From an uncultured Clostridia bacterium (GTDB lineage Bacteria > Bacillota > Clostridia > TANB77 > CAG-508), in contig CAPXSA010000027.1 in NCBI GenBank assembly GCA_948735595.1, positions 7,106 through 71,105 on the forward strand: DNA of 64,000 bases, read 5' to 3'. This document shows positions 6,921 to 7,058 of the stretch, piece by piece (position 1 is the stretch's first letter; every line of letters begins with the position of its first letter). The translations under genes and the position numbers were made by a program. Under the pieces are notes generated by a model. The model was not told the origin of the DNA. It was given only the letters and a program-made list of their open reading frames with translations, and did no database searches.

Positions 6921-7058
6921 ATTATGTAAAATGTTTATAATACGTTTGTCCTTGCTGTCCGCTCATTTCAAAAGCTAAACGCAAATATAAGAAATGAGCG
7001 GAAGGCGCTCGCAAGCTCACCTTGCGCGGACTGCACTTTATTATACACATTTTACATT
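6921..7058. repeat. G+C-rich structured intergenic repeat, family 2, copy 1 (reverse complement of the copy at 63721-63858)
   Basis: About 100-nt core: gtccgcgcaagg...gcgagcgccttcc...ggacag.a.ggacaaacgt. It is flanked by 19-bp AT-rich inverted arms (6924-6942 and 7039-7057). The right arm overlaps the ffh stop codon. Confidence 0.75.

Follow-up and report, generated by a model that had tools for sequence, protein, structure and literature searches.

A family of small, gene-less and probably mobile DNA elements with a covarying core in uncultured gut Clostridia

Two copies of a structured repeat in the window

The window analysed here, a stretch of 64,000 nucleotides from the 1.45-Mb genome of an uncultured Clostridia bacterium (G000), contains two copies of a structured repeat. 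Copy 1 (6921-7058, minus strand) occupies the spacer between ffh (ORF 7052-8404) and rpsP, where it matches the family covariance model with 122.6 bits (C27:14036-14155), and it overlaps the end of ffh as previously described, both the stop codon (7052-7054) and the last codon being covered. Copy 2 (63721-63858, plus strand) is located between SpoIID (63082-63699, minus strand) and a sigma-70 region-4 ORF (63871-63999, minus strand), gene labels that are confirmed by Pfam. The reverse complement of copy 1 aligns with copy 2 at 84% mean column identity, and the core shared by the two is the one written out in the preliminary description.

Each copy consists of a core enclosed by 19-bp outer arms, which pair as they had been described (6924-6942 with 7039-7057 in copy 1, and 63721-63739 with 63839-63857 in copy 2). 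Read on the minus strand, copy 1 begins with the 5' arm ATGTAAAATGTGTATAATA (7039-7057), whose distal ATGTAA is the last codon of ffh together with its stop codon, continues with a core of 96 nt holding a three-way junction (6943-7038, delimited by fold and family structure), and ends with the 3' arm TATTATAAACATTTTACAT (6924-6942), whose distal TTTACAT repeats the ffh end in inverted form and is missing in empty sites. On the plus strand, copy 2 begins with TCTAATGATATGTATAATA (63721-63739), of which the distal ATCTAAT is host sequence and the inner GATATGTATAATA appears to be carried by the element. Its core of 99 nt (63740-63838), delimited by sequence, fold and family structure, comprises the helices P1b (63743-44 with 63835-36), P2 (63748-51 with 63829-32), P2b, with G-U pairs (63754-55 with 63825-26), P3 (63759-63772, GCGAG UUCG CGAGC with tandem G.A) and P4 (63777-63822). 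The 3' arm of this copy, TATTATACATATCATTAGA (63839-63857), ends in ATTAGA(T), which matches the host flank of the opposite side in inverted orientation, and is followed by TAATTAATATA, a sequence that the empty sites do not contain.

Both strands of both copies fold with z scores of -7.1 to -8.4, and none of 200 shuffled sequences folded as well. Throughout the family the core, of about 95-105 nt, has ca. 50% G+C in a genome of 30.6% G+C, and paralogues share 78% identity in the basal core and 37% in the outer arms, the latter being the level expected by chance (37%). As a single strand, the core forms a rod that is interrupted by two internal loops, both conserved and purine-rich (AAGUGnAG / CAAACG and GCGCAAG / CAGCAAG), and that has at its tip a three-way junction bearing two hairpins of variable sequence. 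Several of its features are RNA-like, namely a G(CUUG)C or UUCG tetraloop, tandem G.A pairs and purine-rich conserved loops on one strand. The covariation of this fold is strong: over 28 pairs, 95.2% of the cells are paired as compared to 67.3% in shuffles (24-43% in slid controls), and 567 cells carry changes on both sides of a pair as compared to 146 in shuffles, counts that were obtained on a model-fitted alignment and are inflated by related copies.

The covariation proposed from the two copies was thus borne out for the helices of the core, including the inner hairpin, which differs in sequence yet pairs in both copies (CCGCTCATTTC/GAAATGAGCGG in one and CCGTTGCTTT/AAAGCAACGG in the other). 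For a third hairpin, said to pair as AAGGYG/CGCCTT with a change from U-G to C-G, the change holds, the Y still lying opposite G, but the register does not: it is 82.9% paired with 13 double-change cells, whereas a shifted register, GCGAG-loop-CGAGC with tandem G.A/A.G, is 95.7% paired with 48. Likewise, the argument that wobble pairs fix the strand turned out to be weak, with 62 G-U against 36 A-C combinations in the family as a whole and 10 against 13 in the arms, these last among 716 Watson-Crick pairs, although P2b taken singly has 19 G-U against 5 A-C.

The preliminary description had not recognised the repeat as a known family, and the search of Rfam 15 gave the same outcome. At the Rfam gathering threshold only two tRNAs were matched in the whole window, and with an E-value limit of 10 the best scores for either copy were 9-14 bits, against thresholds of 37-80. 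Twister, twister-sister, hammerhead, hatchet and pistol ribozymes, considered for their consensus sequences, were unsupported by cmscan. The likeness of CAGCAAGGACAAA to domain IV of SRP RNA, next to ffh, is a coincidence, the other 24 copies lying elsewhere. A single-strand origin of the ssoA type was discarded as well: the TAGCGT-like loops at some P3 and P4 tips are variable caps (GNA/GNRA-like), and there is no conserved CS-6. Nor does the element seem to be coding, since the ORFs of 42 and 43 amino acids are on one element strand in one copy and on the opposite strand in the other.

Distribution, insertion sites and orientation of the family

Further copies had been proposed as a check on the two-copy alignment, and together with the covariation they were found: instead of two, a covariance-model search of G000 rendered about 25 copies. 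Within the genus, the element is abundant in G010 (42 copies), G053 (35), G060 (26), G003 (23), G056 (19) and G049 (15), scarcer in G064 (9), G022 (7), G048 (5) and G046 (4), and absent from G008, while 26 of the 50 genus genomes searched gave no match at E <= 0.001. The only copies beyond the genus are three weak ones in two sister genera, and none was found in 98 genomes from four other families of the order. A pattern scan of genome contigs, with a pattern loose enough to produce chance matches in G+C-rich genomes, gave true hits, among the matches listed, in G010 and G053 loci only; 36 pattern hits in viral contigs and four in metagenome contigs were all negative by the covariance model, and no phage or plasmid match was found for the family.

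Comparison of filled and empty orthologous sites shows that the element has been inserted, in most cases after a stop codon and ahead of the following ribosome-binding site. In the ffh-rpsP spacer, G000 and G010 carry a copy and about 25 species of the same genus, including the close relatives G022 and G053, have none; many element-free relatives also end ffh in AAAATGTAA or TAG; contigs with an identical RpsP protein were all filled or came from other species, so that no strain-level polymorphism was found at this spacer. At least 12 copies are specific to G010, the matching sites of G000 being empty, and G008, G057 and G022 lack the element at nearly all of the sites that are filled in G000. 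The empty counterpart of the copy 2 site reads ...TTTTATCTAAT|TTTAAACAGC in G022 and ...TTTGATGATAT|ATTTAAAC in G057. Many copies shared by G000 and G010 at orthologous positions are 98-100% identical.

The insertion points follow ...TAAT, ...GTAA or ...AAGT, with no fixed motif, and in about 25 comparisons of filled and empty sites no consistent or clean direct duplication of the target was detected; instead, an inverted copy of one flank is seen. Copies are scattered singly in ordinary operon spacers. Integron attC sites, for comparison, have R''/R' boxes (RYYYAAC ... GTTRRRY) and occur in cassette arrays next to intI. Their orientation is biased: 20 of the 25 copies in G000 (p = 0.004) and 22 of 27 G010-specific copies (p = 0.0015) lie on the pyrimidine-rich strand, and 19 of 25 in G000 are placed between co-directional genes and antisense to both. 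Since about 80% of the copies are antisense to their flanking genes, in the orientation of the preliminary description, read-through mRNA would usually carry the opposite strand. The same spacer has been used by members of different subfamilies at ffh-rpsP, at spoIID-sigma (in the same position), at C2:122883 and at C5:52289. At C5:42572-42661 of G000 the core has been lost and the arms have been kept.

Composition and origin of the arms

The arms are near-perfect, A+T-rich inverted repeats of about 20 bp, whose outer parts are unrelated between copies. Their differences had been described as compensatory stem changes, and a compensatory evolution of an RNA helix is not sustained: paralogous outer arms are as similar as chance predicts (0.37 in both cases), they are almost purely Watson-Crick (339 of 355) with no wobble bias, and they consist in part of host flank and of its inverted copy.

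Only the inner 8-18 bp of the arms appear to travel with the element, forming terminal inverted repeats that usually read yTATAAyA ... TrTTATAr. The inner 8-9 bp (yTATAAyA) show 46% pairwise identity; the G003 family has a terminal repeat of 15 nt in common, and one of 17-18 nt is shared by the loci L122, L123 and L105b. Often, the distal arm consists of host flank on one side and of the same flank, inverted, on the other. Part of one arm is already present in the empty site at ffh, at the copy 2 site, at L044, L103 and L105a, and at C4:29468 and C10:19226, while about half of the filled/empty pairs have no arm sequence in the empty site, some of the sites scored as empty being secondary losses. 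An automated count of arm bases in empty sites suffered from noise, since an arm that is palindromic can be aligned from both sides, and the alignments were read by eye; of the cases behind the flank-copy model, that of ffh is unambiguous and about six others are probable.

Other changes also affect the two arms together. In an orthologous copy (C8:72129/L032) the arms have changed symmetrically between species while the core and loop are unchanged, G003 and G060 have terminal-repeat variants that recur, mirrored, in the opposite arm, and at C2:122883 and C5:52289 the core is inverted between orthologous loci. Insertion into pre-existing palindromes does not account for the arms, the empty sites being mostly without a palindrome and the lone "solo palindrome" representing a secondary loss of the core. 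The origin of the distal arms matches replication template switching rather than compensation at the RNA level. According to three published accounts (PMC8604942, PMC13100816, PMC8794818), template switching homogenises the arms of inverted repeats, expands them and inverts the spacer between them; such quasipalindrome mutagenesis would explain three features of our element, the perfect, homogenised arms, their growth into the flank and the inversion of the spacer, here the core. As a general mutational process and not an element family, it would explain the arms but neither the dispersal nor the conserved core.

Mode of spread and comparison with known elements

Our best reading is that the family consists of small, gene-less mobile DNA elements of uncultured gut Clostridia, which we regard as akin in kind to MITEs and REPINs although differently built. 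That the repeat is not a simple duplication, as was held from the outset, is upheld. Of the two options then offered, a structured RNA or a mobile element recognised as single-stranded DNA, we favour the latter because of the presence and absence of copies at orthologous sites, the patchy copy number (0-42) and the orientation bias; it is probable that the element is non-autonomous and acts as a folded single strand mobilised in trans by a putative enzyme. This machinery would recognise the fold of the core and not the ends, which would account for the conservation and covariation of the core and for the freedom of the ends to vary.

The mobile unit would thus be a G+C-rich core of about 95-105 nt with short terminal inverted repeats, landing in short spacers between co-directional genes, typically after a stop codon and ahead of the next ribosome-binding site, with a 4:1 preference of orientation relative to replication and transcription. 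At or after insertion, a DNA polymerase may switch template inside the hairpin, and this would keep the two arms identical, extend them by copying host flank from side to side and occasionally flip the core, the outcome being a perfect arm of 20 bp that is different in each copy. The core can be lost later, and plain A+T-rich hairpins are then left.

It can also be the case, although we consider it unlikely, that the core functions as an RNA, be it a small ribozyme, a protein-binding RNA or an sRNA of the antisense or trans-acting kind, which is dispersed by a mobile vehicle and selected at the RNA level on the strand first proposed. The strong covariation in P1b, P2, P3 and P4, the excess of G-U over A-C in P2b (19 against 5), the G+C content of the core (ca. 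50% against 30.6% in the genome), the purine-rich unpaired conserved residues on that strand, with tandem G.A pairs and CUUG or UUCG loops closed by G-C, and a TATAAT that is often found in the inner left arm, ca. 7 nt ahead of the core, would all suit such an RNA. A transcript starting from that TATAAT, however, would miss the 5' arm; no more than about 3 of 20 copies have the "TG" of an extended -10 and a -35 box would have to lie in copy-specific arm sequence, while a promoter of its own would be required, since ca. 80% of the copies are antisense to both neighbours. Moreover, no Rfam match appears even at E <= 10, wobble pairs show little bias overall (62 against 36), copies range from 0 to 42 among sister species and the core has been lost at some loci.

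Conservation of the element for the benefit of the cell, as an intercistronic hairpin that processes or stabilises mRNA (an RNase III site), as an insulator or as a single-strand replication site, seems improbable. Its stereotyped placement between a stop codon and the next RBS in operons of essential genes (ffh-rpsP, gatC|gatA, mcsA|mcsB, accB-like), the re-use of the same spacers and the many orthologous copies that are 98-100% identical between G000 and G010 speak for it, but the placement may simply reflect where a compact genome tolerates insertion. Most sites are empty in close relatives with the same operons, copy numbers vary from 0 to 42, cores decay or are deleted, and no U-tract follows the hairpin.

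Regarding the mobilising enzyme, no gene-carrying copy was found, nor, in G000, any multi-copy ORF of more than 90% identity. Terminal-repeat scans of G003 and G060 for an autonomous parent rendered element-sized pairs only, apart from one 5.4-kb interval in G060 that contains ordinary genes, in MAG assemblies that may lack IS copies. The only reverse transcriptase of G000, 10 kb from the nearest copy, is preceded by a bAvd-like ORF and by a variable-region-like gene end, and is therefore ascribed to a diversity-generating retroelement rather than to the element, which speaks against a retron or another RT-dependent non-coding RNA.

A further candidate in the window is a RAYT-like Y1 HUH gene (53452-54240, minus strand), which encodes a 262-aa protein with a Y1_Tnp domain (E = 5.6e-12), an intact HUH motif (HVH), a YIHFNP tyrosine motif and a C-terminal HTH, and whose best NCBIfam match is a REP-associated tyrosine transposase, with a score (55.5) below the cut-off of 80. 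REPINs, hairpin-forming doublets of REP sequences associated with RAYT transposases (Bertels & Rainey 2011, PMC3116915; PMC3337134), are like our element small, gene-less, intergenic and multi-copy, form a long hairpin, are restricted to narrow lineages and are thought to move as single-stranded DNA, and the host of our element likewise encodes RAYT-like Y1 HUH proteins. It is nevertheless very improbable that the element is a REPIN-type hairpin mobilised by the RAYT/TIRYT-like proteins of its own genome. Each of the seven genomes with 15 or more copies has one or more RAYT-like homologues, and the hairpin architecture and orientation bias fit single-stranded mechanisms at the replication fork (PMC6006769). 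However, both RAYT-like genes of G000 are flanked, as by cognate repeats, by another repeat family (GGGGAC.../TGTCAG) and neither by the element, and correlation across the 50 genomes is poor: G008 has a 97% identical homologue and no copy, several other genomes have a homologue and no copies, and G064, G048 and G046 have 9, 5 and 4 copies and no homologue. For these reasons, the RAYT-like protein was rejected as the mobiliser. The architecture differs as well. A REPIN is made of two inverted REP hairpins with conserved ends and a variable spacer, each REP hairpin being G+C-rich with a GTAG/CGTC 5' tag, whereas in our element the conserved part is the middle, of about 100 nt with a central three-way junction, and the arms are variable, A+T-rich and devoid of the tag.

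Single-stranded "peel and paste" transposition of IS200/IS605 and PATE derivatives resembles the behaviour of the element in the recognition of a folded strand, here presumed, in the strand bias relative to replication and in the lack of target-site duplication (PMC6006769). Those elements, however, lack terminal inverted repeats, carry small subterminal hairpins at two different ends and enter the DNA 3' of a tetra- or pentanucleotide that is fixed (PMC6006769), while ours forms one global hairpin with inverted-repeat arms and a three-way junction and has no fixed target motif. The IS200-like content of G000 is one decayed fragment (C29:3346-3588).

Classical MITEs have conserved terminal inverted repeats, a direct target-site duplication and a drifting interior. 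Our element has a terminal repeat of about 8 bp recognisable in the whole family and no clean direct duplication, with a conserved and covarying interior and flank-copied distal arms. A MITE with identical terminal repeats, a possibility that had been raised in the preliminary description, agrees in part only: the inner 8-9 bp are similar and young subfamilies have 15-18 nt in common, but the outer arms of paralogues are at chance (0.37), there is no consistent direct duplication, and no parent IS with matching ends was found in the scans of G003 and G060 or among the ORFs of G000, assemblies of a kind that may lack IS copies. ERIC/IRU, Correia/NEMIS, RUP and bcr1 are non-coding, intergenic repeats of 100-170 bp that form a long imperfect hairpin in or next to transcription units, and several of them are not known to have a transposase. 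Our element is like these in size, non-coding nature, intergenic location, long imperfect hairpin and placement in transcription units (bacterial MITEs and palindromic intergenic repeats are reviewed in PMC3184786).

The combination of length, long stem and three-way junction with two hairpins also recalls the T-shaped hairpin ends of parvoviruses. The AAV ITR, of about 125-145 nt, has a long stem and two small hairpins, is the substrate of an HUH enzyme, is self-priming and exists in flip and flop forms. It is the end of a eukaryotic viral genome, while our element occurs as dispersed chromosomal copies, and no sequence similarity or evolutionary link between the two was seen. As a speculative suggestion, the core may represent a new folded nucleic-acid signal, either a T-shaped single-stranded DNA substrate of a novel host or mobile enzyme, self-priming and with its arms built from the landing flank, or a small RNA of a new kind, catalytic or protein-binding, that is carried along by the element. 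If true in either form, this architecture would fall outside the MITE, REPIN and IS200/IS605 schemes, because it is the middle that is conserved and the ends that are made to measure.

Small palindromic repeats shape operon structure, the fate of mRNA and genome stability, and most of their families are without a known mechanism. The element described here sits inside essential operons of gut Clostridia with reduced genomes (ffh-rpsP, gatC-gatA, mcsA-mcsB), where it parts genes from their former ribosome-binding sites, and in close species the succession of sites that are filled, empty, flipped or decayed can be followed with unusual clarity. It also calls for caution in the analysis of covariation, since "compensatory" arms of 20 bp would arise here from DNA template switching and flank copying, as proposed above, and not from selection on an RNA helix, the real constraint being on the central three-way junction. 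Such elements can be masked or annotated in metagenome-assembled genomes with the covariance model and, if an enzyme that recognises the junction is found, the family may define a new route of single-stranded DNA mobilisation.

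Core structure and the copies in the window

The reverse complement of 6921-7058 (copy 1, minus strand) aligns with 63721-63858 (copy 2, plus strand) at 84% mean column identity, bearing out the likeness proposed in the preliminary description, and compared with dinucleotide shuffles each copy folds much more stably on either strand (z -7.1 to -8.4). In copy 1 the core (6943-7038) lies between arms at 6924-6942 and 7039-7057, the latter spanning the stop codon of ffh (7052-7054), as had been claimed, and its last codon. Copy 2 has its core at 63740-63838 and its arms at 63721-63739 and 63839-63857, and it is indeed located between spoIID and an ORF with sigma-70 region 4, antisense to both. 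The gene labels around both copies were upheld by Pfam, and neither copy was ascribed to an Rfam family, whether at the gathering threshold or at E <= 10. The spoIID gene (62703-63699, minus strand) consists of two overlapping ORFs, 63079-63699, the only one matching the SpoIID Pfam domain, and 62703-63206, which holds the C-terminal GHGVGMSQ-type stretch; this split is a frameshift, a pseudogene or an assembly error.

Read 5' to 3' in the orientation of copy 2 (plus strand), the element comprises an A+T-rich arm of ca. 20 bp, (U/A)AAGUGnAG, helix P2 (GUCC), GC followed by P2b (GC) and AAG, P3 (GCGAG-loop-CGAGC with tandem G.A/A.G and a tip of CUUG, UUCG or a longer hairpin), GCCU, P4 (8-12 bp, variable tip), CA followed by P2b', AA and P2' (GGAC), and finally AAACG(U) and the second arm. 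Among 84 distinct copies from nine genomes, 95.2% of the cells held a standard pair (67.3% in shuffles), 567 cells were changed on both sides (146 in shuffles) and double changes were present in 27 of 28 pairs, figures that lean high since related copies entered an alignment fitted to the model. When the partner was slid as a control, the paired share fell to 24-43%. In spite of this inflation, there is little doubt that the core helices covary, the effect being large and double changes being readable by eye in P2 (GUCC/GGAC, GACC/GGUC, GCCC/GGGC, GUUC/GAAC) and P4. The third hairpin previously proposed does exist, but not in the register AAGGYG/CGCCUU (82.9% paired, 13 double-change cells), a shifted register giving 95.7% and 48 cells. 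In the deepest subfamilies, a 141-nt type (genomes G003 and G060) and a 153-nt type (G014 and G023), only the basal rod and two internal loops are kept, and P3 and P4 differ.

Distribution, mobility and decay

A genome-wide search by BLAST and with a covariance model (R1, built from 20 copies), as the preliminary description had suggested, rendered about 25 copies in the genome carrying the window (G000; 1.45 Mb, 30.6% G+C), hence a family and not a pair. Related genomes contain 42 (G010), 35 (G053), 26 (G060), 23 (G003), 19 (G056), 15 (G049), 9 (G064) and 7 (G022) copies, 15 others contain one to five each, and 26 of the 50 genomes gave no match at E <= 0.001. In an order-wide sample of 150 genomes, matches outside the genus were found in just two genera of the same family (two copies in G133, one in G148), with none in 98 genomes of four other families of the order. 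Plasmid and phage collections gave no match, and pattern hits in viral and metagenome contigs were all negative when scored by the covariance model.

The element is mobile. G000 and G010 have the identical element in the ffh-rpsP spacer, which in G022, G053 and about 25 further species is short and lacks it, and at least 12 G010 copies correspond to empty orthologous sites in G000. When the sequences flanking each of the 25 G000 copies were searched for in five relatives, most sites proved to be filled in G053 or G056, and most had contiguous flanks, and were therefore empty, in G008, G057 and G022. Two empty G000 sites in the window, at about 2337-2383 and about 49867-49871, are occupied in G010 (loci L104 and L122); at the second, where two genes of G000 abut, the G010 sequence contains the element as well as a new ribosome-binding stretch.

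The insertion point lies downstream of a gene's stop codon and upstream of the ribosome-binding site of the gene that follows, as in gatC|gatA (position 39444 of G000 contig C5) and mcsA|mcsB (C5:52289); a tandem array with a unit of ca. 57 nt (GTTGGATAAGTAGCTTTAGCACTTACAAACTGCTATATACAGCGAAGCTGTATAAGAA) lies beside the latter copy (C5, about 52149-52290). The neighbours of 19 of the 25 G000 copies are co-directional, and the element is antisense to both when read in the direction of copy 2. As to strand composition, the pyrimidine-rich strand is used by 20 of 25 G000 copies (p = 0.004) and 22 of 27 G010-specific copies (p = 0.0015), replication direction and gene direction being confounded with each other here. 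Four spacers are occupied by differing family members: the ffh-rpsP spacer of G014, G023, G043 and G050 by the divergent 153-nt subfamily, the spoIID-sigma spacer of G010 by another subfamily at the identical position, and the C2:122883 and C5:52289 spacers by G010 members in opposite orientation. The ffh-rpsP copies of the first four genomes (L063-L066), whose hosts are distant congeneric species, share with the rest of the family just the basal rod (AAGCGCAGUCCGCGUAAGG ... CCAAGGACCAGCG).

Copies also decay. At C5:42572-42661 a full element with the same arms is found in G057 and G010, a perfect 15-bp A+T-rich hairpin with a 5-nt loop (AAACAATTATAATAA-GAAGA-TTATTATAATTGTTT) in G000, a 28-nt core remnant in G056 and nothing in G022; the G000 hairpin is what is left of a member that G057 and G010 retain in full. 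At the C6:11761 site, exactly one arm is left in G056. A site that appears empty may therefore have lost its element secondarily, and arms can persist after the core is gone, which weakens some of the filled/empty readings but not that of ffh.

Origin of the arms

The outer arms had been read as a compensatory helix, a reading that fails: they are partly host-derived, and their similarity between paralogues (0.37) equals chance (0.37), basal core identity being 78%. Watson-Crick pairs account for 339 of 355 arm pairs in G000; family-wide there are 716, together with 10 G-U and 13 A-C. Recurrence throughout the family is limited to the inner 8-9 bp (yTATAAyA), and young subfamilies have 15-18 bp in common, so that the mobile unit includes a terminal repeat.

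In many cases the distal arm consists of host DNA. The left arm at ffh starts with ATGTAA, the last and stop codons common to many element-free relatives, and the right arm ends in TTTACAT, the inverted copy of that end, which is present in no empty site. For copy 2, the empty site in G022 reads TTTTATCTAAT|TTTAAAC and the G000 site TTTTTATCTAAT-GATATGTATAATA-core-TATTATACATATC-ATTAGAT-TAATTAATATA-TTTAAAC. The pattern of host flank facing its own inverted copy across the element was also found at L044, L103, L105a, C4:29468 and C10:19226, and on either side of the core. In about half of the filled/empty comparisons the empty site contains no part of the arm, and such arms either arrived with the element or were remodelled later. 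The C8:72129/L032 orthologues keep the core and a copy-specific P4 loop, and their arms differ symmetrically between the two species; where the terminal repeat varies in G003 and G060, one arm usually mirrors the other, and nested palindromes exceed 50 nt at some loci. In G003, subfamily copies L034, L054 and L060 lie within larger imperfect palindromes (for example GGAGCTCTTTGGGCAA ... TTGCCCAAAGAGCTCC and AACGAGTGATTTTTGACTA ... TAGTCAAAAATCACTCGTT), produced either by arms that have grown far outward or by nesting of the element within other hairpin repeats.

According to PMC8604942, PMC13100816 and PMC8794818, template switching of DNA polymerase in inverted repeats homogenises and enlarges the arms and inverts the spacer. 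All three outcomes are present in the family, and the arms may have been shaped in this way.

Nature of the element

A mobile element acting at the DNA level is, on balance, the probable reading. A functional RNA transcribed from the strand favoured in the preliminary description (minus for copy 1, plus for copy 2) appears unlikely: stable tetraloops with a G-C closing pair, tandem G.A, purine-rich conserved loops and G-U at P2b speak for it, but the overall wobble bias is small, 80% of the copies are placed antisense, the arms behave like DNA palindromes, and no promoter is conserved, since just ca. 3 of 20 copies have the 'TG' of an extended -10 and the arm upstream differs from copy to copy. 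Some hairpin tips carry GNA triloops (GCGAAGC, GCGTAGC), which are also stable DNA mini-hairpins. That the copies are exapted cis elements is a good deal more doubtful.

As for enzymes that could mobilise such a DNA element, no gene-carrying copy was found. Two RAYT/TIRYT-like Y1 HUH proteins, similar to subclass 2.1 of Quentin et al., are encoded in G000. One (262 aa; 53452-54240, minus strand, upstream of dnaE) contains the motifs HVH and YIHFNP as well as a C-terminal HTH; its score of 55.5 is below the NCBIfam REP-tyrosine-transposase cut-off of 80. Its gene is followed by a copy of another repeat family (53380-53440, TGTCAG...GGGAC...GTCCCC...CTGACA), and the paralogue (C14:50760-51551) has this GGGGAC/TGTCAG family, with dozens of copies per genome, on both sides. 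A RAYT-driven REPIN-type element is very improbable, both genes being flanked by that other family and their distribution across genomes fitting that of the element poorly. Reverse transcriptase was rejected as mobiliser, the sole one in G000 belonging, with a bAvd-like partner, to a diversity-generating retroelement (L145, C17:3801-7406; 119-aa bAvd-like ORF, 352-aa reverse transcriptase and a target-gene end resembling a variable region).

The element works like small palindromic non-autonomous repeats such as REPIN, ERIC, Correia and bcr1-type MITEs. Unlike a classical MITE, it has neither a fixed direct target duplication nor terminal repeats conserved over their full length, and neither a parent IS nor, in G000, any multi-copy ORF above 90% identity was found, although MAGs may under-represent IS elements. 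By their defining tests, it appears to fall outside both REP/REPIN-RAYT and IS200/IS605 PATE. The family is real and mechanistically odd, and apparently undescribed before; it is set apart by an inverted logic, with a conserved, covarying centre between arms that are probably self-templated and in part derived from the host.
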